From NCBI GenBank assembly GCA_002269645.1, contig NIVC01000099.1, forward strand, positions 124,001 through 188,000: DNA of 64,000 nucleotides. Reading direction: 5' to 3'. A program made the position numbers and the translations under genes. Under the pieces are notes generated by a model. That model was not told the origin of the DNA, searched no databases, and worked only from the letters and a program-made list of their open reading frames with translations. This DNA comes from Macrostomum lignano. Its lineage: Eukaryota. Shown piece by piece: positions 9,933 through 57,600 of this stretch; within the stretch, counting starts at the first letter, position 1, and each line of letters begins with the position of its first letter.

Positions 9933-9995
9933 TAACCCTAACCCTAACCCTAACCCTAACCCTAACGCTAACCCCAACCCTAACCCTAAACCTAA
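9933..9995. repeat. Interstitial telomere-type repeat (CCCTAA)n
   Basis: About 10 slightly degenerate TAACCC units. Confidence 0.85.
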
Positions 9996-10015
9996 CTGCC
10001 AAATACACGACTGTG

Positions 10016-29798: not shown

Positions 29799-32579
29799 TT
29801 ACATATCGGCAGTAAAGCTGAACTTGATTGGCCCTCTGCCAGCAGCCGGCGCGGCTCCGGCCTTCTTCTTGTCGATTTTCGCCGCCTTCGCCTCGGCGCC
29901 GCCCTCCACAGCGGGGGTGGCCAGGTACAGCTGGTCCGTCAGCCGGCGCTTGCTGACGCCCTCGCTGCTGGAGGCCGTCAGGCCCTTGACCACCCGATCC
30001 CCAGCGGCTCGGACACTCGACCGGGTCAGCTCGGACACGCCGGACAGAGGCAGCAGGCCGGCCAGGCGGCTTTTGGCGTACAGCTGGCACAGCAGCCGCC
30101 TGCCGCGAAGGTCGAACACCCGCAGGTGCCGGTCCTCAGACGTTGCGAACAGCAGGCCGGCGTCGATGACCGCGTCCAGGGCCGTGACAGCGCCGGAGCA
30201 GCTCGGCTTGAAGTGGCCCAGCAGCTGCGCGGCCGCCGCGGCTGGCGACTTTGAAGAGGCAGCTGGCGGGCGGCGAAGGTCGAATAAGCCAAGATGGCCC
30301 GCTGAATTGCCCGCCGCGACTGCGGCTGCCGATGCTGCCTCGATGGCGCAGCAGGACTGCAGGATCAGAGGAAAAATTTATCCTAACTGAAGAAATGAAG
30401 CCAGCCTCCCACATCCTCAGTTGCTGGGCCAGCCTCCCACATCCTCAGTTGCTGGGCAAGCCCCCAAATCCTCAGGCTGGGCCAGGCTCCCAGATCCTCA
30501 GTTGCTGGGCCAGCCTCCCACATTCTCCTCAGTTGCTGGGCCAGCCTCCCACATCCTCCTCAGTTGCTGGGCCAGCCTCCCAGATCCTCAGTTGCTGGGC
30601 CAGCCTCCCACATCCTCAGTTACTGGGCCAGCCTCCCAGATCCCCAGTTGCTGGGCCAGCCCCTTAAATCCTCAGTTGCTGGGCCAGCCTCCCAGATCCT
30701 CAGTTGCTAGCCCAGCCTCCCAGATCCTCAGTTGCTGGGCCAGCCTCTCAGATCCTCAGTTGCTAGCCCAGCCTCCCAGATCCTCAGTTGCTGGGCCAGC
30801 CTCCCAGATCCTCAGTTTCTGGGCCAGCCTCCCAGATCCTCAGTTGCTGGGCCAGCCTCCCAGATCCTCAGTTGCTAGCCCAGCCTCCCAGATCCTCAGT
30901 TGCTGGGCCAGCCTCCCAGATCCCCAGTTGCTAGCCCAGCCTCCCAGATCCTCAGTTGCTGGGCCAGCCTCCCAGATCCCCAGTTGCTAGCCCAGCCTCC
31001 CAGATCCTCAGTTGCTAGCCCAGCCTCCCAGCCCCAGCTCACCTGAATCGGATACTCGGACCAGGCCAAGTTAACAACAGGCCGCCGCTGCTCGCCAGGC
31101 GAGTAGAGCCGCAGCTCTCGGTGGCCGGTGCACACAGCCAGCAGTTGGCCGCCAGCAATCGGTCTGATGTCGCGCACGTCGACTGGACGGCGAAGGTTCA
31201 GCCGGTCGTTGGGCAGATTCTTGGCCTAGGAAATTTTGGGGGAACAAACAAAGGTTAAAATTGTAGCGGTAGCGTCTAACTTGACAAAAAATGAACCCGA
31301 GAATTCTTTATCTGATTTCATCAGATCCGCATGGATCAAAACCAGCTGCTCACCTGGAACACGCAGGACTCGGCCGCCACATCCCAGACCCGAAGGTCGG
31401 ACTCGCGACCGCCGGTAGCCAGACGAGCGTCGCTGTCGCCCCAGGCGCGGACGACGCCAACGTGGCATCCGGCGCGCAGCTGGGCCGCATCGGTGCAGCT
31501 GGCAGCGGAGGCGGCGAAGGAGGCCAGCCTGACGGTGCCGTCCTCGTGACCAACTGCCAGCAAATCTCTCCGCTCGCCGCTGGAATCCGCCGAGGAACAA
31601 CAGAAGGTCAGACAGGTCGTGGCGGCGGCTGGGACCTGCGAGATGGATTTGCACGGACTGGCGGTGTGATGGCCTCGCATGTTTGGCTTGTTGTGGCGGT
31701 AAATGGTGCTTAGCTACCTGCATGTGCTACTGCCTTGTACATTGTTCCAGACTCGGCTTTCACTCTCGTGTGAGGGTTAGGGTTTAGAAATAGGGTAGGG
31801 TACAGTTGGAGTTTGGGTTGGGGTTATGGCTAGGGTTATAGGTTGGGGTTATGGTTAGGGTTAGGGTTAGGGTTATGGTTAGGGTTAGGGTTATGGTTAG
31901 GGTTATGGTTGGGGTTATGGTTATGGTTATGGTTATGGTTAGGGTCATGGTTATGGTTATGGTTAGGGTTATTGTTAGGGCTTTGGTTATGGTTATGGTT
32001 AGGGTTATTGTTAGGGTTATGGTTATGGTTAGGGTTATTGTTAGGGTTATGGTTAGGGTTTTGGTTAGTGTTAGGGTTATGGTTAGGGTTATGGTTATGG
32101 TTAGGGCTATGGTTAAGGTTAAATTTTTCGGTCCTATCACATCAAACCCGAAATCATAAGGCTTAAACCTCTTTTACTGACCGGTTGGATTTTAAAACGC
32201 TTTAGGTCTAGAAACCTAGATGATGCTTTCGATTGCGGAATGCGGAAATGATGGCTAATGACCTTTCTGAACTTACCTCAGCTGGTGACGTCATCTCAAC
32301 TGCCGCAGCTTTTTCAGCGCTATCCATCTGTCGAAGGTCGTCGTCCAGGCGTCGCAACAGGCCGGTGGCGGTGGCGGCGTAGACGCGTGCCGGGCCGCCG
32401 CAGTCCGGGCTGGAGGCCAGACCGATCACCGGGTGTCGCTGGCCGAACTCCGCCACGGCCGACAGTCTGGGAGGCTGGGATGCATCACCAGACACTGCGG
32501 AGAATGTGACCGACTTCACGTGCCCGGAGCGGCAGGCTAGAAGAAGCTGCGGCGACTGATGAGGCTCAGGATCCGGCAT
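29799..32579 (-). CDS. WDR74: WD repeat protein 74 / Nsa1 (60S biogenesis)
   Basis: Phase-0 exons 32579-32277, 31635-31354, 31225-31043, 30356-29799. Motifs LATGGRESDLRVWD, AKNLPNDRLNLRRP, VCTGHRELRLY, EYP, AGNSAGHLGLFDLR, LYAKSRL. Confidence 0.88.
30405..31030. repeat. Intronic minisatellite, 28-bp unit CCCAGATCCTCAGTTGCTGGGCCAGCCT
   Basis: Tandem copies in the last WDR74 intron. Confidence 0.95.
31773..32120. repeat. Interstitial telomere-like hexamer array (GGTTAG/GGTTAT)
   Basis: Mixed TTAGGG and TTATGG units in WDR74 intron 1. Confidence 0.9.
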
Positions 32580-38514: not shown

Positions 38515-39108
38515 CTAGAGCAGGAAGCCGCCACCGGACACCTCCGTCCGGCGGGGACTGTCAACAAAGGACAACCAGTCGGACTCGTAGGTAGGCAGCA
38601 GGCCCATTGTGTGGCACTTGTACACCGCTAGCGCCAGCACGGCCAGGTTGCCAATCAGGTAGACGAAGCGCTGCAGGCAGGCCTGCCCGCCCTCGATCTG
38701 GGCGAAGGTGGCCTGCATGGCGAACACGGCCTGGATGGGGCGCATGAACAGCATCAGCACCATCATGATGGGGAATATCGATACGGAATTCCCAGCCATC
38801 CACATGATGAACAGATTCATTGGCAACTGTTTCAGCGGGCCGAGGGCCGCGTCCCAGCCTCTCTTGCTGATGAGGGCGCCGTCCGGCTCCCGGCCGCCGG
38901 CCAGAGGTGGTGGCCGGTCCATGTAGCCGGCCGGGGCGGCCAGCTGAGCAGTCGCCGTGCTCAGCGAATCGTAATGACGCGACTGGGAAGCTGGCGAGCG
39001 ATGATGAAGCAACGAGAATTCGATGGCCCAGCGCCTCCGTATGCCAACAGCGGCTGCCAATGAGGCAGAGTTGGGCACTGCCGCGGCTGCTGTCGGTTCG
39101 TTGCGCAT
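38515..39108 (-). CDS. EMC4: ER membrane protein complex subunit 4, single coding exon
   Basis: WAIEF, PAGYMD, KRGWDAALGPLKQLPMNLFIMWMAGNSVSIFP, AVYKCHTMGLLPT..SDWL, SGGG.LL. ATG 39108 is preferred over 39147 because a TTCAG acceptor lies between them. Confidence 0.93.
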   Translation of the reverse strand: MRNEPTAAAAVPNSASLAAAVGIRRRWAIEFSLLHHRSPASQSRHYDSLSTATAQLAAPAGYMDRPPPLAGGREPDGALISKRGWDAALGPLKQLPMNLFIMWMAGNSVSIFPIMMVLMLFMRPIQAVFAMQATFAQIEGGQACLQRFVYLIGNLAVLALAVYKCHTMGLLPTYESDWLSFVDSPRRTEVSGGGFLL

Positions 39109-42058
39109 CGCAGATTGAGCCGCTTCACAGCTGAAGCTATTGTTCATTTAAAATATTGTACAGCTGCAGTGCTTTACGCAAAAAGAGAAAGTCTAAGCCC
39201 GCCATTTGGCATCACACAAGAATCGAACTTTACTAGGGAGGGACCGCTGACCACCTTGACCTCCCAGGACCACTGCAGAAGGGGGGGCTGCTGCCCTCTG
39301 CTTACAATGCTGATACTAGTATTTCGATTTTAAGTTTATCTCAAGTTTCCAACTTCCGATACTAGTTTTTAAAAAATGTAAAACATCGCATTTTTCTCAC
39401 TGGGCAAATGTAAAACTAAAATATTAAGAGCCATTTTTTAAATTGAACGAACTTTGGAGATAGCATAATAGTTAATAATAAAAATCAATACAATTCAAAT
39501 TTATGCTGCTTGGTAAACTCAAGCAAAGCTATGATACCTTCAAGCCTAAGACACTTTGAATCCATTTAATTGGACTTAATAAAGACTTTCTGATGCTTTT
39601 TACTCTGTTTAAGTAAGTAACAAAAGTAAGCTGCATTTTAGCTAGTGTAATTTGGGGCTTTACATGTATGTGCAATAATAAATGACCTTTTTTGTCTTTT
39701 CCTATCAACTTTCTTTCCTGAATACTTCATAAATATTAAAGCCTTGGCTTGGACCCTGCCTAGTAGAAAAATGATAAATGCTTCTATCTTTATTGCTATT
39801 GGAATAAATAGAGATCTTTATTGATAGTCAGATACATAAATAAGGAAATCAATTGTCAAGTTTGAACATTCCTAAATTGAAGGATTCTAATATTCAAATT
39901 GCAAAAATCCTATTCTATAATTTAAAAGTAATAAAAATATATAGTAATGTTAACAAAATTTATATTGCCATGATCCTATGTAGTTAAGCACCTAAGAATA
40001 TCCTTTCCTTACATTCTTGCAAACTTGATAAGGTATCCAGACAAATTTTGTAGATATAGATCAAATATATATTTCATCATCTATAAATTCATCATCTAGA
40101 TTTATATATAAGTCATAAGATGCTGATTTTTCAAATTTTTTCTACATAGCCCACAATTTAGTAAGAAGGGCATCAGATATAGATAAGGTAAGCTATCCCT
40201 TGCCATAGACAACAAGTTTTTTCCTACAAAGATAATGTATCATTTTGACAATAATATGTCATTGCTGATATATTATTATTTATTTAAACTGTTGCCTCTC
40301 AATAATTTAATAGGCATCATAAAAATTAGCTTTAGATGTTATCACATAAAGTAAATAATCATATGATATTATAGACAATTTACTTACTTTAAAGTTCTAA
40401 GCCAAGTGCTATTAAACCAATGTTCTTTGTTTAACTTTAATCATTTTGTCAAAAATAGAAAATCATCTAAAAAGTCAAACAAGTATTCTGTGTTATTGGT
40501 ATTTATTGTAGTCAAAGCCATTATCAATATATGCATGATTTGTTATAGAGTCTAGGCCTATTAAAAATTACTATTTTAATTGTATTTCAAACTTTATATA
40601 TTTCATGGACAATAGATTATTTAATACATGCCTAGTTTATTTGCCAATTTGGCTTTTGTATTAAACAAAATTTTCAATTCTATCTTTTTAATAATTGAAT
40701 AGACTTTGCAATTTGCATTACATATAAAATATAAAAACAATACTAATGATAACAATAAAAAATATAGGTAAAAAATAGCATATATATGTGATAGTGCCTC
40801 CTTTTTCTAGCAATATCTGTATGCTCTGTTAATAGTATAGTATATTCTTTTTAATATTCATTTTCTATGATTACTTTTCTTAGAATAGGCTACATTCAAA
40901 TTTACACTAGAAAACAAACTTTTTGTTTAAATGTTATGTCCCAAAATACCAGTAATATTCTAATAATATTAAATTTCTAAAGGATTAATAGCCCCAATTT
41001 GGAAGCATTAAGAACCACTGAAAGCAAGAATTACTCAGTAGTGTAGTATAAGGAATATTGCCATAGAGCAGTAAAATTGCCTCAGAGCAATAAAACACCT
41101 AGAAGCTGTGACCCTCTGATCCCGGGAATGCCTTGGACTGAGAGAATTCCACTTTAGAAAGAGTAATTAGAAGTATAGAAATTGGGTTTAGTGTCAATAG
41201 ACCACACAGGCCAAGAAATAGTACATATGCTACTTGCTACTAGTAGATAAGTACATATACTATCAATAAGTACATTCATACACTACCAGTAATATTTGTA
41301 TACATGAAACATTAGTAAAAGCATATAAGTAATAGGAATATTAGGAGCCTTATGACAACTTAAGGTAATTTGACAAGACAAAAGTTAGCCCTAGCATAAC
41401 TTTGGTGGCTTCATTAGGAAACAGTGAGAATGTCATTAGGGGGCAGAACTTTTCCCCTACAACATATCAATATAAAAGTTTCCATGCTTTTTGGTGCCTG
41501 TGCTTTTTTGGTACCTGGTATTTTAGTACCATAGCTTAGTGTAAATACAAAAATTTTTCATAAAAAATATAATAAATACTTTACAACACTTCTGTCTTTA
41601 TCTAATGAAAGTGTTATTCTTTTCATTAATTTAATCCACTTTTTAATTTTAGAAAATCTCTCATTTTATTAAATTCTATTAGCTATATACTATTAGATAG
41701 ACTGTAAAAACCATTGCATTGATTCAACTCATGTAGTATTCAATGATCAAAATTAGAGTTCCACCATAGCTACAGATATGGCTATGGGAAGTTACAGATA
41801 TAGAGGTTTTTTGGCAAAGTATATGAATACAGATATGGTTACAGGAACATATATTTCCCATTTCTAGTTCTTGTATCTAGTAATACAACTCAACTAAGAC
41901 TTGAAAGATCATTGGGCTTGGGGCTGTTGATTTGATGGGAGTAGGGTAATAAAAATAACTTAATGTTGCCAGTTTTAAAATGAGGAGAACTTTTAAGTTG
42001 ATGGAATTTAGGACTCAAGCATTAACATAGATTTTCAATGCCATGTCCATATCAAAGT

Positions 42059-43827: not shown

Positions 43828-46637
43828 AATCTAAATATACTAAATCTCTAATATTTGTATGCTTGTATGAATACTATAAATAATTAATAAGTTGGTGAAT
43901 CTGACCAATCTTATGTTCTATGCTCAACTCTATAACAAATTTGCTTGTGACAAATTTATCCTAGGCCATATAAAAGGCCTAAACAATTTTTATAAACACA
44001 AAATATTTAATAATAATTAGCCCGCCTAGTTGATACTTGATAGTTGATAAATACCAAAGCCAAGGGCAAGGCTTCATTCATGGCACTTTTACTTTAAAAA
44101 AATGTAATTAAACCGACAAAAAGTTGTTATATATATCCAATAGCCAATAGGCTCTTTCTATATGTCAACGCCTACTAGTGATTTCTACTACTAGGCCTAT
44201 GCTGCCAGTGTGCAGTCATTTCGTCTACCTATTTTAGGCCTAGATGGACGATGTAGACCTACCTATGACAGTATGAGTCTATGACCTAGTTCTTAATTGA
44301 GATTATTATCTACTCTTAGTATCTCTAAGCTAGGTCTAGCCTAGCTAACTTAACTACATTTATCGTTTTTAACCATTTTGAAACAAGCCCAGTGGAGTAG
44401 CGTAGCCAAGGTCATGACATGTGATGTGGCAATGGCATACGACCACATAACATAGCATGTTCAGTTTCATAATCAATGTCAATGAACACAAATTACAAGG
44501 ACAACTTTAAAAGCAAAACGAGGCAATTAAAAGGACAAATTGGTACAACAGGGGTGCTGTGGTTCTATTTCGTGACCCACATATTAGAAAATAGTACGAC
44601 AATGACTTGCAGACACAACCAGCTTCATTTTGTTCTAGAAAGACGGTGGTTTGAAACAAACGCAAAATAAAACAAAATAGACTATTTCTATACCTAGATG
44701 TCACGAAAATTTATAAGCATTAAAGAAAAAAATAGGAACCTTATTAGACCACATATTTTGTAACAGATAGGCTAAGCTAGAGTATTGTTGTATAAATATG
44801 TATAAAGTAAAGTGGTGCTGCGATCGTGGCAAGCTAGCAAGTGTAGCAAGCGCTCAAAAGACCAGCGTGCGCAGCATCCAGCTGCCGCTCCTGCAAGGTG
44901 GTCAGGGTTCACGTTTCAGCGTTGTAGATAATTTCAAATCTAACACTTAGCGCGCAACTACACACTTTGTAACTTAATTTAAAGGTCTTTAAAGCAAAAT
45001 AATACATGTACATGTACATAGCGAACCCCGGGGGGAACTATTTTAGCAGGATTACGATATTTAACATGATTATTCTGACATGCTTTATTGATTAGCTAGG
45101 GGTGTCAATTTTGGGTGGACAGCTATTGCAGCAATCTTATTGATCGGTTGATTTGCTTTGAATAGCGTAGTTATACTTTTTTCGTGATCTAATCGTCAGT
45201 GGGTTTAAAAGCATTGGTAATCTTAATTCTTTATGGAATATTCGACTTCTACTACTGTAAAATACAGTAAGACCGGGTAAACGTAAAACTTGGTCTCTGT
45301 CACTTTTGGCAGCTTATACGCGTTTGTCTCTGGGGCCTTTTGTTGTATTCTCGATCACTTTCGATAATATAGGTCTAGCGCGCGGTCTAGGGTTCTATAA
45401 ACAGCTCTTTATATCCTTTATCAGGCCGCCAGAGAAAACCGTATAAACTGACGGGATCTCCTAGTATCTAGGCTGAATTTGAATCTCACGAGTATTTCGC
45501 TCTGCGTAACTTTAAGGCAAATAATTGGGTTGAAGACTTGAATTTGAGCCAACTGGATAGTCCAGAGATCAATACAAAAGAAGCGAGTTGAGATCTGAAA
45601 ACTGCGCAGGAAAAAACGAAGCGCCGCTCCAGTTTGAGATTGGCGTCTATTTTATACCGATTGGCAATTTTGACCCCCCCGCCGTCGGTGGGGTGTCTTC
45701 GCGTGGTTAGCAAAGGCGGGGGATTAATTTTAAGCAATAAAATTCTGGGACTCAGTCCCCTAGTTGTACACGAATTTAGTTAGTTCTAGTAGGCTGCTAA
45801 GTGCGAGGGTTAGAGATTATTCAGGGTTTTGCAAATCTATGTGTTGAGTTGGATAAAATTTGGGATACGCTCGTAGAACGATTATAGAAAAAGAGCTTAA
45901 TTTTCCGTCTCTTAACTCTGTCCATGGATGATTAAACAGTCTCTCTCTCAGCTCTCGGTTGTCAAGCTGTTTGGGGTTGATCTCGCCTTCTTGGGCCGCT
46001 TCAGGTTGGGTAGGAATCTGTAGGTGGGCCTCACGTTTTCTCCCTCAGGGTGCGCCAGATTCTGCTGCGTGCCGCGTCGTTCTTTAAGTCAGGTCGCTGC
46101 TCAGTTTGCTTTTCCCAGCCGGTTTGAGTGCCATTGTTCCTGCGGCAGGGTGACGCTACTGACTGGAATGGAAAGGGGCTTTATTAGATTCGGCTATTCA
46201 AATTGACTTGACAATTGATTAATTATCTTAGAACTGCTTCTGTTTGCCCTTCTAATAGCTATCTAGGGGTTCCATTGTGTTTTTTCTGCCTCGGCCTTCA
46301 CTGCGGCTGGGCCTTTCATAAATTTCTACCTATCTTCTAACTTAGGGTTAAAACTTCAGATGTCTAACTCTTATATGATTCCCCTTTTTTTCGAAATCCT
46401 TGTGATAACAAGGATTTGGGTCCTCTATGCTAGAACTAAATCGCGTTGTCGGTGCGTATTTCATCAAATATAAGACGTTAGAAATCTGCAAAAGGTAGTA
46501 AACGTTGTATTAGGGATAGAAGAGGATGTGCTAGCAGAGGTAGATAAGTGATTGTGTCAGAGGATGGATTATACTTCAAGCAAAAGTTTCAAGCGTATAG
46601 TTTGTTTTATATAGCTCGTATGTTGCGCCGAGGCCGT

Positions 46638-46961
46638 TTAGTAGTATTCGTCCTTGACCGGGCCGTTGCCTATCTTCCATAGATATAGGCGGTAGCCCTG
46701 TGGTGAGGGCCATGGCCTAATGGTGGCGGCCGCCTCATATGGGCCCCCGTCCCATGGAGTCTTTCTGGGGGCCAGGATCACCCCCCAGTCGTTATAGTCG
46801 GCGGCCGTTTGTGTAGCCACGGAGTGGTCGCCATCGATATCGCACTCGGCGACCTGTGTTTGTGCGTCTTTCTTGACGCACTTCCGAAAGTGGAGGTCTA
46901 CGTCCACAAAAGCCTGGTCAGGTCGCCGGGTGTAAGCCTTTTCTGGTGTGTAGGCGGCCAT
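46638..46961 (-). CDS. Small 107-aa ORF inside the LTR-type element, unknown function
   Basis: ATG in AAAGATGG context 18 nt after a CTTATTTCTTTCCAG acceptor; non-repetitive; contains VATQT. Confidence 0.35.
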   Translation of the reverse strand: MAAYTPEKAYTRRPDQAFVDVDLHFRKCVKKDAQTQVAECDIDGDHSVATQTAADYNDWGVILAPRKTPWDGGPYEAAATIRPWPSPQGYRLYLWKIGNGPVKDEYY

Positions 46962-47356
46962 CTTTGTGCTGAGTGTGTGCTGGAAAGAAATAAGCGAGAG
47001 TATTCATTGATTATCACGTCTGGGGGTTTGGCGTGTGTTCTCATCTGCCTATCCTCCTTAGTGGGCCTACTTTACATTGGTTCTATCCTCTGCGTACATG
47101 GTGTGGCGAGTGCGGCGGGACGTGAGGGGTGGGGTTTTTAGAAGCTGGGTTCGGAGCCGTGCCGCGTCTGACGAAGGGGTCCTTTCCTTCCTAATCTTTC
47201 GATTCCTTTCAAAACGCGGCGCATGGAAGCGTGCCCCCACAATTTGACTATTCGGCCGATTTCTGCGCCGTAGATACTATCTAATCTCATCATGTCTGAG
47301 TTTACTGTGCGGAAGATAGTGCGTCTTGTTGTGAGCTGGAGCAGCGATTACGGGCC

Positions 47357-47551
47357 ATGGAAGATCGCTCTATTGGTTTAGAACGCTGGCTACTCAATCT
47401 GGAGGCTCGGTCGGCGGTTCAGGATGGCGGGCTGCGCGCTCTTCGCGGTTGGCTGAGCGGGGTGGGGGGCGGTGGCCTCCTACTGTTTGTCGCGCTTCTA
47501 CTGCTCCTAATCTGTCTTCTACGCCGGCGGTATCAGGGCCTGCCTGCTTAG
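47357..47551 (+). CDS. Small heptad-plus-transmembrane ORF inside the LTR-type element (antisense to the PBS orientation)
   Basis: CCELEQRLRAMEDRSIGLERWLLNLEARS, then LLLFVALLLLLICLL and RRR; the frame is open about 20 codons upstream of the ATG. Confidence 0.3.
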   Translation: MEDRSIGLERWLLNLEARSAVQDGGLRALRGWLSGVGGGGLLLFVALLLLLICLLRRRYQGLPA

Positions 47552-47683
47552 TAAGCCATGTAATTCCGTGGATTTCACGTCAACCTTTAATGACAATGTG
47601 TTCTCTTCAGTTCTGTTTTTATTTGTTATAAATACGGTTATAAATTCGGTACATCCAAGCATCAGTAAAGCATTAAATATCGC

Positions 47684-47738
47684 AGGATTCCTGGCTCTCA
47701 CCCAGGCGGCCCGGGTTCGACTTCCGGTCAGGGAACCA
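47684..47738 (+). tRNA. 5'-truncated copy of mature tRNA-Glu(CTC) ending in CCA; serves as an extended primer-binding site on the minus strand, not a functional gene
   Basis: AGGATT-CCTGG-CT[CTC]AC-CCAGG-CGGC-CCGGG-TTCGACT-TCCGG-TCAGGGA-A-CCA: perfect anticodon stem, T-arm and 3' acceptor strand; positions 1-20 absent. Confidence 0.85.
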
Positions 47739-47740
47739 CC

Positions 47741-48087
47741 TGTAACAGGTCGTTTATCGGTAGTCTCTGAAGGCCTCTCACGCCAACTACCTTACACGCC
47801 TGCTACCCCTCTGCCGGCGTGTAACCTGCTACTACCCTGCCTGCTACCCCTCTGCTTAAACTTTACTCAACTCGGCAGTGGAGAGCCTCGGCTCTTTCAA
47901 TTGCAATTGTATTTATAACGCTCGGCATTGTGCTCGGGGGCAGTGTTGGGGTGGTGGCGTGATATTTTTCCGCCCACCCATCTTATTTGCTTTTTTGCAT
48001 AGATAGCTAGTTAGATGAATTAACACAGAGAGGGCACTGCGTGGTCTGCGTGGCTGTTTTAGTGCTGGCAAATGCGTGGGTCTAACA
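47741..48087 (-). mobile_element. LTR (347 bp), 5' LTR of a minus-strand element
   Basis: Minus strand begins TGTTAG and ends TTACA, with a GGGCGG box, TATAAATA (47917-47910) and AGTAAA (47867-47862), followed after 2 nt by TGGTTCCCTGACC (tRNA-Glu 3' complement). No matching second LTR in the window. Confidence 0.72.
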
Positions 48088-48563
48088 TTAAATATCTATG
48101 GTAAGTTTGTAATAGCATATCAGCGTTTTGAACGCTGATAACAGCTCATCGATAAAGAACTTAAATTAACAATATTGAAAAGTCGCGAAAATGGTCACTG
48201 GTCAGATAGTCATATTCCATTTCGTCATACCGGATGACGAAGTGACCAGGAGCAAAGTAGCTTTGAAAAATAATATGACGAAGTGACCAAATATTTAGTT
48301 ATGCTGGATACTTCGTCATCAATCAATCAGTGAAATATATGGGGGATGCTTTTAACGTAGATAACAATTATGCACAAAAAATAAACCAGAAATTGGTATC
48401 CGGCCTTTCACATCTACCAATCAGAAAAAAATAGTCGAATAGACACCGAATCTTTTAGATATTAAAAATTTTATAAAACTTTCAAGAACATATTCTTTTG
48501 CCATGAATTAGAAAATTCTCCACGCAACACCCTTATACAGTACGCATAACGTATTTCTTTACA

Positions 48564-48764
48564 ATGCCGGATAAACGTAGACCGCGAAAGTGCAAGAATC
48601 AATTGTGTGTTGCGTGCTCAAAAACAGTGCGCAATGATGATGAAGCCATTTCGTGTGACGTCTGCAAGAAATGGCAACATCGCTGCTGCGGAACAGGTGT
48701 GTCGAAAAAAGACTACAAGATGCTAATAATGCAGGATACAGCATTCATGTGGATATGCACTAAG
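48564..48764 (+). pseudogene. PHD-finger N-terminus of the MULE transposase, truncated by LINE insertion
   Basis: CVAC...ISCDVCKKWQHRCC...WICTK, lacking the last Cys; LINE sequence follows. Confidence 0.7.
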
Positions 48765-48861
48765 TTCCGCTGCAGGGCGGTCCGAAGACGCAGCGGGGAG
48801 GCGAGCGTCGCCCATTTCGCTAATCCCTGAAAGACCCGCAAAGGCTAGGGCGCGGGGCCGG

Positions 48862-51800
48862 TCAGGGAGGTCTGCCGGTCCTGTCTGTAGCGTTGTCTTC
48901 GGTGGGGAAGACAGAGGCTCGTTTGGTAGCCTGGAGGAACTGGATGAGCCGTGGGATGTTCTCGGGCCGGCAAACGTCGTCCAGGGACGGGTTGGGCCCG
49001 AGGTGGCTGGTCTCGGTTGAAGGCCGGGCAGTAGCAGACGAAGTGCTTGGCATCTTCGTTCTCGAGGCTGCAAAGGGGCAGAGTTCACTCGGGCGAACAC
49101 TTCGGAGGAAGCAGTGCCTGGCAAAGCAACCGTGACCTGTGAAGGTCATAGTGAGAGCGCGGATATCTTTTCGATTTTGATTCAAAAGGATTCTATGCAG
49201 CTTGAGGGATGGATTGGGCACTGCAGCACGGGACTGGCGGCAGTTGAAATGCCACCCCATATGCGTAAGTGCAGGATGTCCGCCCAGTCATTCATCTCAC
49301 GATTAATGACCGTGGCGGGGATGGGGGCCAGGGGCACGGGGCCAAGGAGCGAGCCAGAACTACCGCCTTTGCGAGCTCGTTAACTTTGAACCCAGCGTGT
49401 CCTGGGATCCACGTAAGCCGGGCGGTGTTCCTCCAAGCCAGCTTGTTGAGCTGCCCGATACAGTCACGGACTGTTCGGGAGTTCGTAGTGGTGTGACACA
49501 GGGCCTGCAAAGCGGCTTGGCTGTCAGAGTCGAAGAAGATTCTTCTGTCCTTGAAGTCCCTGCAGTGGAGCTCAGCTGCACAGGAGCTGATGGCAAGGAC
49601 TTCGTTCTGGAAGACGCTAGAGAGTCTGTCAGTGTGTTGGGCGTGAGTAGAGATCACGCGGCCGTTGATAAGGATACAGACTCCAAAGCCGGATAAACCG
49701 TCTTTGGAGGATCCGTCAGTGAAGCAGTGAACCTCCTGAGGGGCCCAGCTGTCGTTGGCGTTCTCCCTGGAGGGGATAGTGACCTTGAAGCGTTGGTAGA
49801 GATTGAGGGAGCGCGGCTCAGCGTCCGAAAGAACAGCCGTACTCCCGCTCTCCTCCAGAACTTTAAGGCACAGGTCAGAGTGCGGCCGGAGCTTGCGCTT
49901 CGCCATCGCTCTTTGTGGCTTGAAGCTAACGCCACCCTCGATTAGCCGGCGGGTGGTTTTAGCAGCCTCGCGACGGACAAAGATGTCCAGAAGGGGGGGG
50001 CAGAGAAAGGCGTTGAGGCCGTCAAAGGGAGCAGAGAGCGGGGCATTCAGAATCATGCGGCACGCGCGTCCCTGCACCTTTTTAAGGGCTTCGTAGCAAG
50101 TTTTAATCTGCAAAGCGCAGGTCCAGATTAGACCGGCGTAAGTAACGGCCGGTCGGACCATTGCGGTGTAGATCCACCAGAGCCGTTTCGGGTGAGGCCC
50201 CAGGTGGTGCCAACGGCTCTGCGCAGCTGCGCAAGAATCGCGAGGGCTTTTTTGGTTTTGGCCTGAACGTGGGTGGACCAGCTCAGCCGGTGGTCCAGCG
50301 TAACGCCGAGACACTTGGTTTGCTTGCAGGATGGGATTTTCACCCCGTAAAGTTTTAGTGGGCGAATACGCCATTTAACCCTGCTAGTGAACATGATCGC
50401 GACAGTTTTGGTCTCGGAGAGTCTGAGGCCGCACCTGTCCGCCCATTGTTCAGCAGAGCGAATGAAGTTTTGCAGAAGATCCCTAAGGGTTTGGGTGACG
50501 GTCTGGATGCTACGGCTGTAACATCATCGGCGTAACCGACCTTAAGGATGGGGTCAAGATGGCTGTCCTGAAGGAGCTCATCGATGACCATGTTCCAGAG
50601 AACTGGAGAAAGGACACCGCCCTGGTGGCCCAGCAGGTGTGCGGTGGCAGTGCGGTGGCTGATCATATACATGATCCACCGGGTGAGGTGCGAGTGGGTT
50701 CCTCTAGCACGTAGAGCTCTGTCGAAAGCCTCAAAGAGGACATTATCGAAGGCTCCAACAATGTCGAGGAAGACAGCGAGAGCGTAGCCATTACCAAGAA
50801 CGGCTTTCTCCAGCATGTCGACCAAGACATGAAGCGCACTCTCCGTGGACCGGCCTGCCCGAAAGGCATGCTGGTTCTCACTGAGCGGCTTGTTCTTCAG
50901 TTCCACAGAGAGGAGGCGCCAGAGCACCAGTCTCTCTAACAGCTTCACCAGTGAGGAGGTGAGGCTGATTGGTCTGAAGGATTTAATGGACCGGTAGTCC
51001 GGTCGGCCGGGCTTGGGGATAAAAACCACCTTGGCCTCGGTCCAGGGTTTCGGAACAAAGCCGAGAGCAATGCAAACTTTCAGAAGCCGGCAAAGGTTCC
51101 GCAGGAAACCGGTGCATTTCACCGCCTCTCGCAGGAAAGCTGGCACAATGCCGTCCGGTCCTGGGGATTTGAAGGGTTTGAAGGAGGAGACTGCTTTAGC
51201 AACGCGGTCCTCCGTAATGATTGAGTCAGCCAGTACGTGTCCACCCACTGAATGATCAGGGGGGGGGGTCGGGCCTGGCTGGCTCGCACGAGAAAAACGC
51301 TGTTAGCATCGCCTCCAGCGTTTCTCCTGGGTTCTCAGTGAGCGAGCCGTTGGCTTTCTTTACTGAGGAGAGTTTGGACATTTTGTCCAGAGTGAGGGCT
51401 TTAACGATTCTGGAGGTGGGGCGGGAGCCCTCAAGTTCCCCACAGTATTCGCGCCACTTATTGGTTTTGGCGTTCCTAACCTGCCTCTTGAACTCGTGGA
51501 TTGAGTTCAGGTAGGCGGTTTGGTCGGCCGGATTTTTAGTTTTTTGGGCCTACGGTGAAGTCTTTTGGCTCTGCGACGGAGGTCGCAAGCTGCGGGTTCC
51601 ACCATGGGGCCGACTGTTTGCCTTTATATGCCTTTAGTGGGCATGAGGCTTCGAAGGCAGCAGTGAGCGAGTCCGTAAGTACGGCCGCAAATTCATCTGC
51701 TTCCTCGCAGGTTTTGATGGAGACTGGAGTGCTAGTGCAACGATAGGTCTCCTCCACGTCAAGCCTGAAGGCGGTCCAATCGGTATTCCTAGCATTCCGT

Positions 51801-51870
51801 TTCCAGTAAAGCTGGCCTGCGTTTCGGGCGCTGGCCAGCGTGAAGGAGATGAACTTGTGATCAGAGAGGG
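48862..51870 (-). pseudogene. LINE ORF2 (APE remnant, RT, RNase H), multiply frameshifted
   Basis: Only SLSDHKFISF of the endonuclease remains; RT and RNase H are split over several frames. Confidence 0.88.
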
Positions 51871-53204
51871 ACGCTAGATCTGATCTCTAGAGAGGATCTG
51901 ATCTCTGTGATCAGAGAGTAATCCCACCAGTTGGAAGGCTGAGCCATGCCGTCGTCCAGTTCCCTCAGCTGGCTTTCAGTGTTTTTGCGAGCGGCACGAG
52001 TCCGCTCGAGGCGAAGTCTCAGAGACTGAGCTTCGTCAAGTGCGCGCTGGATTAGCCCGGACCGCCGGTTACTGCGGGCGGGTCTACGCCCGCGCGAGGC
52101 GGACTCAGCAGCGCGAGTCTTGTTAGGCTTGTTAGGCTCGGGATCGGGTTGCTGCTGCCGTTTGGCCGGCGGAGCCTGAGCCCCAGCTCCGGGAGCGGCG
52201 CGCTTCCCGTCGTTCTTGGTCTCCACCTTGCCCTCCTCACAGCGGAGGATGGTCAGTTGATGGAGACCAAGGTGGAGGTTTGAGCCATGCGGTAGCCGCT
52301 TGGCCCATCCCTCCGTCAGGCCGAGGATGACGGTGGCCCCGGTCGTGCCCTTGCGGACCGTGTTGTGGTACACAAGACCACTGACGTCGAGATCCGGGTG
52401 CCGCTTGAGCAGGAGCTGCCGCAGCTGCTCCCCGGACTTGATTGCACTGTCGGCCGGGACCCAAATCATATGGCGGATGTTCTTCGGCCGCTCGCTCTCC
52501 AGGGCGAAGGTCAGCTGGCCCAGGTCGCTGTGCCAGTCGCACTTGGGCAGTTGATCTCGCAGGAGCTGGGTGCTCTCCTCGGATTTGCACCACAGTAGGA
52601 TGCACCCGTTCGCCTTGGTGGACTTGACGATGTCCACGAAGACGCCCTCCAGGGTTAGGTTTAGGAAGCCCTCGTCGATGGTACGCCACGCGACGTCGAG
52701 CTGCTCGGGCGTCAGGTCGAAATCCCCGCCGAGGATCATCATGGCGGGTTGCAGCGGCTGCTTGACCTTGGAGGCGTAGGATTCGGAGGTCTTGAGCGGG
52801 GCCGCTTTGTCCTTGGAAAGCGGTAGGCCGGCAGGATTGCCCCCCTGAGAGTCCGAGGACACGGCGGTTCCTGACGGCCCAGCAGTGCCACCGGACTCTC
52901 CAGAGGGCCTCCCCGCTGCGGTGGCTTCCGAAGGCCTCACCGCGGCTTGCCCGCCCTCCGCGGACGCAGCAGCAGCCCGCTTCTCCTGCCGCTTACGGTT
53001 GCGGCGGATATTTCGCTGCCGTCGGGACTCGGCCGTGCGCGGTCGGCTAGCCTGGCGGCCAGGGTGCTCGACGGCAGCGTCAGCTGGCCCTGTTGGACCA
53101 GGTTGGGCGTTGGTGCTACCAGTGGTAGCTACCGGAGCGGCTGATCCCGGTGAGCCAGAGGCGACCGGGTCAGTTTCTTTTGAGATGGTGGCGTTAGTGG
53201 CCAT
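51861..53204 (-). CDS. LINE ORF1 protein (447 aa as read; true C-terminus probably deleted)
   Basis: Long open frame upstream of ORF2; central IWVP...LLKRHPDLDVSG...TVILGL block resembles ORF1 of insect LOA/R1-type elements; ends in a rearranged junction. Confidence 0.75.
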   Translation of the reverse strand: MATNATISKETDPVASGSPGSAAPVATTGSTNAQPGPTGPADAAVEHPGRQASRPRTAESRRQRNIRRNRKRQEKRAAAASAEGGQAAVRPSEATAAGRPSGESGGTAGPSGTAVSSDSQGGNPAGLPLSKDKAAPLKTSESYASKVKQPLQPAMMILGGDFDLTPEQLDVAWRTIDEGFLNLTLEGVFVDIVKSTKANGCILLWCKSEESTQLLRDQLPKCDWHSDLGQLTFALESERPKNIRHMIWVPADSAIKSGEQLRQLLLKRHPDLDVSGLVYHNTVRKGTTGATVILGLTEGWAKRLPHGSNLHLGLHQLTILRCEEGKVETKNDGKRAAPGAGAQAPPAKRQQQPDPEPNKPNKTRAAESASRGRRPARSNRRSGLIQRALDEAQSLRLRLERTRAARKNTESQLRELDDGMAQPSNWWDYSLITEIRSSLEIRSSVPL

Positions 53205-53699
53205 AGCTGAAAGCGGGGGAGGGCTACTCGTTACGCGAGTTGAGTAACCCGACTGGCCGACACCTCAAGCCAACCGGTTTGAAAAAAGGACCGCTAGCGA
53301 CCGGACTACTCCCCGGCCTTCCAGCCCATCGGCACGGTCAAACACCTTAGGCATTAGAGGGTACGTTAAGCAGTACCACGGCCTGCAGGCTGGCAAGCCA
53401 GACCCGCATGCCCAAATTCGGCCGAAGCCACTGGATGGGTCCCCAGCGCCGGAGCCCAGTCTGTCCAGCAGCCCTAGGGTCTGCCTTGAACACACGCGGG
53501 GACGAGTACCACTGGGTCGACTTGCGAGACAGCGTGGGGGGGGGGGTCTGCAGCTGCCAGAAGCAAATAGAGGGTGCAGACCTCCCACCAGCCTTGACGT
53601 GCTAAAGATAGGGGCAGGCGTGAAGCATCGCAGACCTTAGCTCGTAGGCCTAGTCTGTCTCATACTTCACTGGCATGCTGAATACGCCTTCGCGTGCAG

Positions 53700-54000
53700 T
53701 CGAGGGCTGCACAGGCGCCTCAGGGAGAGATCAGATAGAGTGCAGCTTTCCTTATATCCACTAATCGACCTGTTGCACAGGGAGGCGACTCTCGTGCCAC
53801 TTCAGCTTGCCCTGGTTCAGCAAGGTGTCCAAGAGCGTCAGCACAAAGTGAAGTACCGGGATATGCAGGAGAAAGTGGAGCGGTACTGGGCACGCCATGA
53901 CGCCGGACAGCTATCGCTAAGAGAATTTCTACAAGACTGCTCCCGCCTCGGCCACATCCCGCGATTCGGACACATTGGTGTGAATCTTGTGCAGCAGTGA
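53700..54000 (+). pseudogene. C-terminal fragment of MULE transposase
   Basis: VEG(W)HRRL with a one-base deletion, then LYPLIDLLHREA...YRDMQEKVERYW...GQLSLREFLQDCS, typical of MULE transposase C-termini; DDE core absent. Confidence 0.65.
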
Positions 54001-54819
54001 TTTATTTCTTTCGTGAGCTCTATACTGGCGTTTTTATTCTGGCAATTGAGAAGAACAATGTATTTATTGCTTGCAACTTTATGATTTTCTATGCATATGC
54101 AAAAATGTTTTCGCGACTTCTTTTGAAAATAAATAAATTTCATTTACATGCACATATACTGGTATTTGTGTTGTTAACATGTACTCCTGGAAGTAACTCC
54201 TTATTAATAGAAAAGTTGGTTTAAACCAGTTGTGACTCTTGTGTACAAGCAGTACAACAGTCTCTAAGCGGGAAGTTCTGTTATTTTTTCTTGCATATTT
54301 TCTTGCTCATTTGTGAATTTCGCAATACTCTCAATATTATAATTATTTATTTATTATATACCAGCTACTATATCTACAATAAATCAATCGCTAAAACTTC
54401 TTTATAAAAAATCGTTGTCGTTCCTTGTCTTGCGGTTTTATTTTATCAAATACAGTTAAAGTTGAAATGAAAGACATCAATGAATAAAGGAGATAGGGTA
54501 TGTACATTCAATACATACATGTACAAACGTGCATGTATAGCTCGCTGAGTAGGTCAGAAATTAATTTTCAAAACAAAACACTTTTGCGAGGCCAAACTTG
54601 AAATGTTCGAACGTACAGAAACTGATAACTGGAAGAGCAGTTTATCCCTGCGCGGTTCATTTCAGGAGAGTGAAAAGTCGAGTAATATCTGTACATAAAA
54701 ATTGAATAACTGGTCGGCGGTGAGAGAGTGCGATAATCTGTTTTTATGTGACAGTTATATGAGTGCAGTGTAGAAGTATTACTAATTTGTACGAGTCACA
54801 AGAATGGGTGAGAGAATTG

Positions 54820-56095
54820 GTGAGAGTGCAGAGTGAGAATGAGTGAGAGAGTGCAGAGTGAGAATGAGTGAGAGAGTGATGAGTGAGAGAGTGCAGAGTG
54901 AGAATGAGTGAGAGAGTGCAGAGTGAGAATGAGTGTGAGAGTGCAGAGTGAGAATTGGTGAGAGAGTGAGTGAGTGAGTGAGAATTGGTGAGAGAGTGCA
55001 GAGTGAGAATGAGTGAGAGAGTGAGTGAGTGAGTGAGAATGAGTGAAAGAGTGCAGAGTGAGAATCAGTGAGAGAGTGAGAATTGGTGAGAGAGTGCAGA
55101 GTGAGAATGAGTGAGAGAGTGCAGAGTGAGAATGAGTGAGAGAGTGCAGAGTGAGAATGAGTGAGAGAGTGAGAATTGGTGAGAGAGTGCAGAGTGAGAA
55201 TGAGTGAGAGAGTGCAGAGTGAGAATGAGTGAGAGAGTGCAGAGTGAGAATGAGTGAGAGAGTGCAGAGTGAGAATGAGTGAGAGAGTGAGTGAGTGAGT
55301 GAGAATTGGTGAGAGAGTGCAGAGTGAGAATTGGTGAGAGAGTGCAGAGTGAGAATGAGTGAGAGAGTGCAGAGTGAGAATGAGTGAGAGAGTGCAGAGT
55401 GAGAATGAGTGAGAGAGTGCAGAGTGAGAATGAGTGAGAGAATGAGTGAGAGAGTGAGAATTGGTGAGAGAGTGCAGAGTGAGAATTGGTGAGAGAGTGC
55501 AGAGTGAGAATGAGTGAGAGAGTGCAGAGGGAGAATGAGTGAGAGAGTGCAGAGTGAGAATGAGTGAGAGAGTGAGAATTGGTGAGAGAGTGCAGAGTGA
55601 GAATTGGTGAGAGAGTGCAGAGTGAGAATGAGTGAGAGAGTGCAGAGTGAGAATGAGTGAGAGAGTGCAGAGTGAGAATTGGTGAGAGAGTGCAGAGTGA
55701 GAATGAGTGAGAGAGTGAGTGAGTGAGTGAGAATTGGTGAGAGAGTGCAGAGGGAGAATGAGTGAGAGAGTGCAGAGTGAGAATGAGTGAGAGAGTGAGT
55801 GAGTGGGTGAGAATGAGTGAGAGAGTGCAGAGTGAGAATGAGTAACAGAGTGCAGAGTGAGAATGAGTGAGAGAGTGCAGAGTGAGAATGAGTGAGAGAG
55901 TGAGTGAGTGAGTGAGAATGAGTGAGAGAGTGCAGAGGGAGAATGAGTGAGAGAGTTCAGAGTGAGAATGAGTGAGAGAGTGAGTGAGTGCAGAATGAGA
56001 ATGAGTGACAGAGTGCAGAGTGAGAATGGGTGAGAGAGTGAGTGAGTGCAGAATGAGAATGAGTGACAGAGTGCAGAGTGAGAATGGGTGAGAGA
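54820..56095. repeat. GA-rich minisatellite, about 25-bp unit GAGTGAGAGAGTGCAGAGTGAGAAT
   Basis: Tandem variants inside the MULE. Confidence 0.95.
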
Positions 56096-56974
56096 CTGAG
56101 TAAGATTGAGTTGATTCTACATGCTTGAGTAGTACAGATTCCGTTAATTCCTGGCAGTTTGTCCAGACAGCCAGACCGAGGTTGACTCAGCAACTACAGC
56201 TATTTGAGATTCAGCTTGATAGATAATTTGAATATTATGTGGTTACAGTTAGGGTAGCAATTAAATAAGTTTTTTATTTTCGAATTGACCCCGCAGTTTC
56301 GAAACAAATCGAAAGCAAACGAATCACTGGGCATATGTGCTTCTGGAAGTTGCCACTCGCGGATTAAATTAGTTGACAGCTGCATGAGCCAGCGAATGCA
56401 TTTTTTATTCCAGGTTCTGTGCTGTTGTTGTAGCATTCTATGCTTTACTGCCGGTGGGTTTTGAGACAAGCAATGTGTACGGGTCTCTCAAACTAAAAAA
56501 TAACGACTTTGCGATGAGGTACAGGCGCAGATGGAGGAGTTGGGAAAGATAGCTATAGCTGAGATTGTTATCGAAACTAGTACGCATATTTTTGTGCAGT
56601 TACTAAGCAACTGTTTTGTCAAGCACATCTGCTCTCTATGGAGATCATAAAACACTTAAAGGGCAGCTTAATTTCTATGCGCAAAATGACAATACTCATC
56701 CAGCATTGTGTAAACATACGGGTGATATATGAGTCGGCAAACTAGATCGCAAAAGGCCGTGTATATTGAAGACGTGAATGAGTTATTGAAATCATGCACA
56801 ATCACGAGTAGCTTACCAATCAATTAAGACTATTGGTCGAAAATGTGTCTACCGGTACAGGCATGTCTCTAGCCTTGCATCTGAATCTGGTCATTCTCCG
56901 CTATTTTTTCCCAAAACATCCTTCCTGACTTCAAATATTTTTAACTCGTATGCACGCAGCAGCAGCTGTTTTCC

Positions 56975-57600
56975 GCTCTCTCTCTTCTCCTTTCTACTCT
57001 CTCCCTTCTCCCTTCTTCTCTTTCCTCTCCTCTCTCTTCTCTCCCTTTCCCTCTCTCCTTGTCCTCTCGATTCTCCCGAATTCTCTCGATTATCTATACT
57101 CTCTCCTCACTCCACTTCTCTCTCCCATTGTCTCTCTCCTCTCTGCTCTCACATATTTCTCTTCCCTCTCCTCTCTCCTCTCATCTCTGTAATCTCTTCT
57201 CTCTCCTCTGTTCTAGCTCTACTCTCACATCTCTTGTCTCTGCTCTCTCATCTCTCCTTTCTCCTCTTTCATCTCTCCCATCTCATCTCTTGTCTCTTCT
57301 TTCATCCTTCCTCTCTCGTCTCTCCCCGCTTCTCTCTCCTCTCGTCTCCTCTCCTCTCTGCTCTCCTCTCTCATAACTCCTCTCTCCTGTCTCATCTCTC
57401 TACTCTCTCATCTCTACTCTCTTGTATCTCCTCTTCTACTTTCTCATATCTACTCTCTCCTCACTCGATCATCTCATCTCTCTCATCTCTACCTCTTCTC
57501 ACCTCTACTCTCTCCTCCCGTTTCTCTCGCCCCTCTTTTCTCTCTCCCTCCTCTCTCCCCTTCTTCTCTCCCCTCTCCTTGATCACTCCTCTCCTCTCAC
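56975..57600. repeat. CT-rich low-complexity tract
   Basis: Degenerate polypyrimidine sequence. Confidence 0.9.

Follow-up and report, generated by a model that had tools for sequence, protein, structure and literature searches.

Organization of the locus

The window analysed was a 64,000-nt stretch of the Macrostomum lignano genome (assembly GCA_002269645.1, contig NIVC01000099.1, positions 124,001 to 188,000). On its minus strand, the end of an LTR of family A is followed by a 2-nt spacer and then by the complement of tRNA-Glu(CTC), CCA first (...TGTTACA GG TGG...). Downstream of the tRNA copy lies the 3′ part of another element, of family D, and not a family A leader. The features are, in minus-strand order:

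48142–48146, minus strand: putative target duplication, left copy, AGCTG, with one extra T (48141) between this copy and LTR A
47741–48140, minus strand: LTR of family A, 400 bp, TAT...ACA, delimited by repeat copies and 5-bp duplications
48118–48140, no strand assigned: perfect 10-bp inverted repeat (hairpin) at the 5′ end of LTR A, seen in the sequence
47739–47740, minus strand: 2-nt spacer between the LTR A end and the tRNA copy, seen in the sequence
47684–47738, minus strand: complement of mature tRNA-Glu(CTC), positions 76 to 21, by comparison with the host gene; the tRNA sense is on the plus strand
46376–47683, minus strand: 3′ internal part of family D (Ty3/gypsy), 1.3 kb, with a polypurine tract at its end
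45315–46375, minus strand: LTR of family D, 1061 bp, TATA...TATA, without significant similarity to LTR A
45310–45314, minus strand: putative target duplication, right copy, AGCTG, in the flank of LTR D

Comparison with host genes showed that 54 of the 55 bases of the tRNA copy were identical to the commonest host tRNA-Glu(CTC) gene, which was found in 15 fetched loci and was followed by CCA in none of them. The chance expectation of a 55-nt tRNA-Glu match in this genome is about 2 × 10−22. A complement of the mature tRNA running from CCA to A21, 2 nt from the LTR end, had been reported in the preliminary description and is borne out. The same description took a change in the T-loop for a signature of the 18-nt boundary. 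This was a misreading, as the T-loop of the host gene itself reads TTCGACTC and the sole difference is C61>T, inside the 18-nt zone; A58 was correctly copied. The far end of the copy lies directly 3′ of U20a, and its last 2 nt are equally assignable to the downstream sequence.

The fragment is too short for ARAGORN, which found 0 genes over the whole window, and for Rfam, which gave 0 matches between 44000 and 52000. No tRNA or Rfam match was found inside LTR A, and the tRNA copy sits outside the LTR. A tRNA-like structure had been raised as one option for the 55-nt piece, but it folds no better than shuffled sequences (z = −0.07; 87 of 200 shuffles fold as well). A search of the window for a second LTR A found none, and the two LTRs at the locus, A and D, are unrelated. 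An intact LTR retrotransposon or TRIM was ruled out, the LTRs being of unlike families. The product is a dead fossil, with unlike LTRs and no protein encoded, and the expression look-up listed no RNA data set as containing the locus.

The long tRNA match occurs on three assembly contigs, which share at least 9 kb of flank at 97–98.5% identity; judged by these flanks, they represent one insertion. In the third assembly copy (L079, G000:C3129:803-830), 2 nt are inserted into the tRNA match at the point of the bulge seen in normal family PBSs; this insertion is absent among the sequencing-read pieces listed. The tRNA/D junction is crossed by unitigs from three studies that carry 30 letters (X1, X3, X9) or 19 letters (X7) of the tRNA copy, fewer than the 31 required for read bridging. 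The LTR D/flank junction is bridged by read unitigs in X1, X3 and X7, and the LTR A/tRNA junction by none of the read pieces listed. Given the unitigs across the tRNA/D junction and the three assembly contigs, an assembly artefact is unlikely, though reads do not prove every junction.

LTR A and the primer-binding sites of related families

LTR A is a real dispersed repeat, with 131 candidates, of which 40 were scored, and 48 exact 3′ ends. Exact 5-bp duplications flank its ends at 17 of 36 distinct junction sequences from fetched loci, which fixes the LTR at 400 bp with its 5′ end at 48140 (TATCAGCG). The preliminary description was thus right to call an LTR here, while its extent, 347 bp from 48087 with TG...CA ends, was not upheld: the ends are TA...CA rather than the canonical TG...CA. 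As for the transcription signals it reported, TATAAA at 47917 and AGTAAA at 47867 are present, and AATAAA was looked for in LTR A and is absent. Families A, B, D and E all start with TAT instead of TG, and the start of LTR B is also inverted-repeat-like.

Family A consists mainly of solo LTRs, together with one non-autonomous miniature element elsewhere, 1.46 kb long and with a short PBS. Paired LTRs, a PBS, a purine tract and an AATAG duplication were found for this family at L010/L064. TGG occurs within 4 nt after the LTR A end at only 6 of the 48 ends; three of these are the present locus, one is the short PBS of the miniature element, and two have no PBS. In family B, whose ten terminal bases are the same as those of LTR A, the PBS is short in 15 of 16 matches. 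For family C, a 14-nt PBS was present in 11 of 15 loci read, the others being three copies of one extended locus and a 3′ LTR. All three 5′ LTRs of family D examined have a 13-nt PBS, primed by the same tRNA-Glu. The family A miniature element and family D likewise have 2-nt LTR-PBS spacers. In this assembly there is, then, no family with a fixed 55-nt PBS: the long match is at one locus, and the sister families have 13–14 nt. Such a family had been proposed on the understanding that shorter PBSs in other copies would speak against it, and these are what the other and related copies carry.

Normal leaders of families A (L064, G000:C1145:88025 region), B (L066) and D (L171) contain a bulged 5-nt match past tRNA A58. 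The family A leader also has a second box against tRNA-Glu positions ~4–18, with 13 of 14 bases matched and only 6 of 5000 shuffles as good; it resembles a PBS in two parts, or an old read-through copy that has collapsed. In B, C and D a second primer box fell short of significance (698, 919 and 4365 of 5000 shuffles as good, respectively).

The family D half and the target duplication

Family D is a 13.8-kb Ty3/gypsy element encoding a zinc-knuckle gag, a fusion-glycoprotein domain, protease, RT, RNase H and integrase. Its assignment follows from the protease-RT-RNase H-integrase order, paired LTRs, PBS and purine tract, and its best solved relative is Ty3 Gag-Pol (E = 4.8 × 10−79). The family is autonomous, and its insertions are flanked by 5-bp duplications. 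Its LTR starts with TATAAGAGTT, as against TATCAGCGTT for LTR A (8 of 10 bases), and the two LTRs are otherwise unrelated. TATA...TATA LTRs were seen at L171–L174 (G000:C1878, C1405). The fusion glycoprotein domain is Monjiviricetes-like and lies between gag and protease. This gag-env-pol order is as described for elements with gB-type envelopes in nematodes, bryozoans and flatworms (PMC13524379).

The sequence AGCTG brackets the whole unit, matching at 5 of 5 positions with a 1-nt offset; 0.35% of random flank pairs are as good. The extra T at 48141 equals the first base of LTR D. A search for the empty site found none, all three right-flank matches being filled copies. Nor was a close donor found for either half: most LTR copies are 83–88% identical, and partial matches reach 95%. 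At the tRNA/D junction there is 2 nt of exact homology, which is poorly readable for want of a close donor, being judged against a 79% relative only.

CCA-bearing tRNA copies elsewhere in the genome

Across the genome, at least 19 CCA-bearing tRNA copies longer than 30 nt were identified at 18 loci, 5 of tRNA-Glu and 14 of tRNA-Ser. The set was assembled by similarity and pattern searches, holds only copies with fetched host genes, and is a lower bound. In the similarity search for Glu copies, 40 of 43 candidates were scored. A pattern scan with A58 intact gave 40 matches against 11 in the control, from which 30 loci were read and 3 fetched. With A58 changed, the scan gave 63 matches against 98 in the control; showing no overall enrichment, it served as a candidate list only, and 30 of the 63 were read.

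Several candidates were left out of the 19. Host genes were not fetched for comparison at L220/L221 and L313, candidate read-through copies of tRNAs that we take to be Tyr-like and Leu-like, respectively; A58 is changed in the latter. Also left out were L197 (~30 nt, uncertain), L192 (a tandem repeat), L246–L248 and matches without further tRNA likeness. L246–L248 hold a tRNA-Ser(GCT) copy from just after A58 to the 5′ end, with neither CCA nor LTR and with mismatches at C32 and G26.

The upstream LTR was demonstrated by repetition for 12 of the 19 copies. The length of tRNA copied ranged from 40 to 81 nt and, where checked, the tRNA was each family's own primer. At L116, LTR B with a full 75-nt tRNA-Glu(CTC) lies tail to tail with an inverted unit of LTR E and a 55-nt tRNA-Glu(TTC), with filler AAG at the junction and the whole inside one perfect duplication, CATGC. 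A miniature B element and an E element at L323 (G000:C1551:19000-28999) are joined via unprocessed ends across a 4-nt junction, also inside one 5-bp duplication (ACATC). This join indicates that single integrations of joined cDNAs from different families do take place in this genome. At L138, where LTR C is followed by 66 nt of tRNA, an inverted 12-nt piece of the element's own U3 end caps the copy, and the duplication matches at three of four bases.

Half of the Ser events (7 of 14) are two-LTR elements in which the tRNA copy stands in place of the PBS and the front of the interior, and which end in a matching 3′ LTR. Duplications among these seven were perfect and of 5 bp in two, and of 11 bp in one (L219). 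A spacer base was retained at L318, and a few extra junction bases occur at L219. At L218 (G000:C2171:16640 region), a 53-nt tRNA-Ser copy gives way to a short stretch from the end of a foreign LTR, then to another PBS, of normal form, and to a gag-like frame, an arrangement that may represent rescue onto another element's U5.

Modification footprints in the copies

A58 was miscopied in 8 of the 14 Ser copies (five A>T, two A>G and one A>C), compared with 13 mismatches among 551 other bases in the first 30 nt (2.4%; binomial P = 2.5 × 10−10 for the excess). It was miscopied in none of the five Glu copies (Fisher P = 0.04 for the Ser-Glu contrast), one Glu pattern having required an intact A58. 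No A58-mismatched Glu copy was added by the similarity search (40 of 43 scored) or by the changed-A58 pattern (63 matches). Three Ser-AGA copies have C opposite A34, presumably the product that inosine would give, and mismatches or stops in Ser copies were also found at C32 and G26.

Among the five Glu copies, two end at A21, one near position 20 with indels and one at G10, before G9; the fifth runs to full length. The copy at the present locus, which shows no misincorporation, shares its A21 stop with a second, independent Glu copy, in support of the earlier report of a stop beside D-loop positions 20/20a. RNA templating at this locus rests on CCA, geometry and the shared stop.

By analogy with other animals, the mismatches and stops in the 19 copies would fall at commonly modified tRNA positions (58, 34, 32, 26, 20a and 9), and the 18 similar copies likely preserve chemical marks that the tRNAs bore at the time of copying. 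In zebrafish tRNA-seq data as described (PMC11417395), RT-error sites occur at the same positions, m1A58 of Glu-CTC is stage-dependent, and demethylase-resistant marks are found at positions 20/20a. Substantial but error-prone read-through of m1A has also been described (PMC4787781).

Origin of the unit

We consider it probable that the unit, comprising LTR A, the tRNA copy and the family D 3′ end, arose as one aberrant RT product and integrated once. Its firm part is primer read-through, which is very highly probable across the alternatives considered below. The locus shows the whole U3-R-U5, the family spacer and the cognate primer complement with CCA beyond nt 18, and the earlier proposal that RT copied a mature tRNA past position 58 is supported.

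In the proposed sequence of events, tRNA-Glu would prime a family A element, and the plus strand, started at the polypurine tract, would copy U3-R-U5 and enter the still-attached primer. It would then pass A58 and stop at a modified U20/20a. The A58 of the primer was probably unmethylated, a reading we hold somewhat more likely than correct read-through of m1A; loss of m1A58 is described as relieving the strong stop in vitro (PMC8599865). The ~40 extra nt would have no partner in the minus strand, whose PBS is 14 nt long, and normal transfer would fail. Rescue of the 3′ end may then have taken place on minus-strand DNA of family D, at a point 1.3 kb upstream of LTR D, either by an RT template jump in a shared particle or by end-joining of two cDNAs, between which the data do not separate. 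The double strand, with an A-type U3 end and a D-type U5 end, would finally have integrated with a 5-bp duplication.

Several observations favour this single chimera. Family D is autonomous, uses the same tRNA-Glu primer, makes 5-bp duplications and has a similar LTR start; the AGCTG bracket is seldom matched by chance, and cross-family units exist at L116 and L323. The two-LTR Ser events have the same anatomy within one family, and the mismatches and stops of the copies lie at commonly modified positions. Against it stand the extra T before LTR A, which fits nesting, and the lack of an empty site, of a close donor and of misincorporation in the Glu copy. The Ser-Glu contrast is modest (P = 0.04), the modification states are inferred from other animals, and an upstream LTR is demonstrated by repetition for only 12 of the 19 copies.

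The extra T would be accounted for exactly if two events had occurred. Family D would have inserted at AGCTG, LTR A with its tRNA copy would later have integrated by its U3 end one base inside the 5′ LTR of D, and ~11 kb of D would then have been deleted; primer read-through would still hold. Families do nest, for example LTR E inside D at L325. This course of events nevertheless requires insertion at base +1 of a 13.8-kb element as well as a deletion ending at the tRNA copy. Imperfect duplications are seen at other read-through events (11 bp at L219, one mismatch at L138, a spacer base at L318), and cross-family units with one perfect duplication exist, so that two events seem unlikely. A tRNA copy made independently of the LTR RT, either as a tailless tRNA retrocopy placed by a LINE beside a solo LTR or through recombination between a PBS and a tRNA gene, is largely refuted and quite improbable. 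It would suit the non-LTR element present in the window, the lack of an RT error signature in the Glu copy, and the L091 locus, where a CCA-bearing Glu copy has no repeated LTR upstream. On the other hand, orientation, 2-nt spacing and tRNA identity match the family PBS exactly, and at least 12 demonstrated LTRs are followed by a copy in this geometry, of the cognate tRNA where checked. Gene recombination, moreover, cannot yield the A58, C32, G26 and A34 mismatches, and the A21 stop occurs in two independent Glu copies. The LTR itself being real, the locus is not the ordinary retroposed tRNA fragment that the preliminary description had allowed for.

A primer retained on the minus strand and copied by a host repair polymerase during or after integration would produce the same geometry, and the filler bases and scant homology at junctions (AAG at L116; L219) are as in end joining. 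We regard this as very improbable, since most two-LTR cases resume on their own interior and end in a proper 3′ LTR, as results from continued plus-strand synthesis by RT. Hardly credible is a replicating family whose fixed 55-nt PBS pairs with the primer or folds like a tRNA. The long match does lie on three assembly contigs, and the A, B and D leaders keep some complementarity beyond 14 nt, but the three contigs are one insertion whose two LTRs come from different families. With half of the six TGG-bearing LTR A ends being this very locus, and with no folding signal, such a family is refuted in this assembly. The single chimera accordingly remains our preferred reading.

Relation to known systems

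According to the textbook view, plus-strand synthesis halts at m1A58, and over-extended DNA goes no further. With an m1A58-deficient primer, retroviral RT copies further, and completion and integration are described as blocked (Fukuda et al. 2021, PMC8599865). The present case resembles that account in the copying past A58 and in extra sequence that cannot pair with the minus strand; it differs in that the products underwent rescue and became fixed in the germ line of an animal, and in that the elements are of Ty3/gypsy type. Two other cases likewise have a nearly whole mature tRNA with CCA abutting the LTR end, in primer geometry: a tRNA-Gly copy in a circular MLV DNA (Colicelli and Goff, according to PMC12220202) and a tRNA copy at an HIV provirus (PMC12220202). 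As described there, those were isolated cell-culture cases with a non-cognate tRNA, whereas here at least 18 loci hold a copy of the cognate primer, frequently with target duplications, cross-family joins and modification footprints.

The footprints resemble the RT signatures of tRNA-seq at m1A58, m3C32, m2,2G26, m1G9 and 20/20a, as these are given in two accounts (PMC4787781, PMC11417395). In contrast to tRNA-seq, the signature here was likely written in vivo by the element's RT and then inherited, and it comes from 19 molecules rather than millions. The short PBS plus second box of normal family A and B leaders is like boxes 0, 1 and 2.1 described for Ty1 (PMC3592414); unlike that extended PBS, the 55-nt copy is contiguous and occurs at a single locus. 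Helenus elements (Kojima 2024, PMC10886601) are also non-autonomous LTR elements with tRNA-derived sequence. Their tRNA-like part is characterized in that paper as lying inside both LTRs, family-wide and not PBS-complementary, unlike the present tRNA copies, which lie outside the LTR, in the PBS position and at single loci. Ty1 and Ty3 are described as inheriting their PBS, and a title on the sequence of lentiviral primer over-extension appears among the references of the same papers (PMC7472051, PMC6088434).

The tRNA-primer, or strong-stop, model of SINE origin starts from a tRNA 3′ end followed by the U5 complement. The locus has this arrangement and had been likened to an intermediate in the birth of tRNA-derived SINEs. 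That likeness does not extend further: U3-R-U5 is there in full, the tRNA copy lacks the A-box end (positions 1–20), and there was no amplification, the three assembly copies being of one locus. Whole-primer copying is already known from isolated retroviral DNAs. No published genomic survey of inherited read-through copies with modification footprints was found in the literature covered, which comprised few subscription papers and excluded supplements; a genome-wide, modification-stamped set was not found in print.

Implications

Taken alone, the locus is a dead, ordinary-looking fragment, and its interest lies in the recurrent class. These loci indicate that, in this genome, many retrotransposon families have produced over-extended plus-strand DNA in vivo, and that such DNA can be rescued and passed on. 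Two-box PBSs such as that of family A may derive from decayed read-through copies. We give about an even chance to a broader reading, in which animal genomes would hold a minable fossil record of failed plus-strand transfer: RTs of LTR retrotransposons would often read through the primer in the germ line, and the stranded DNA would be rescued on any co-packaged cDNA and integrated, each copy being a single-molecule modification read. On that reading, the state of m1A58, I34, m3C32, m2,2G26, m1G9 and modified U20a would have been recorded at the time of insertion, and the joins would name the autonomous carrier of each miniature element. If this is true elsewhere, a genome scan would give germ-line tRNA modification states, also for extinct lineages and without tRNA-seq. 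Pairs of helper and passenger LTR elements could be identified, and a route to chimeric elements and primer-site evolution would be apparent.

Surroundings of the locus

Beside the unit, positions 48193–54000 hold a DNA-transposon-like repeat that ends near 48193 and has a PHD-finger frame at 48507–48830. A minus-strand non-LTR retrotransposon that has RT and RNase H (49292–53264) splits this repeat. Dense arrays of unrelated minisatellites, with periods of 13–36, occupy 1–38400 and 54800–57600, and interstitial TTAGGG-type repeats lie at 9933–9996 and 31811–32121. An intronless EMC4 gene (Pfam PF06417) is present on the minus strand at 38515–39147.
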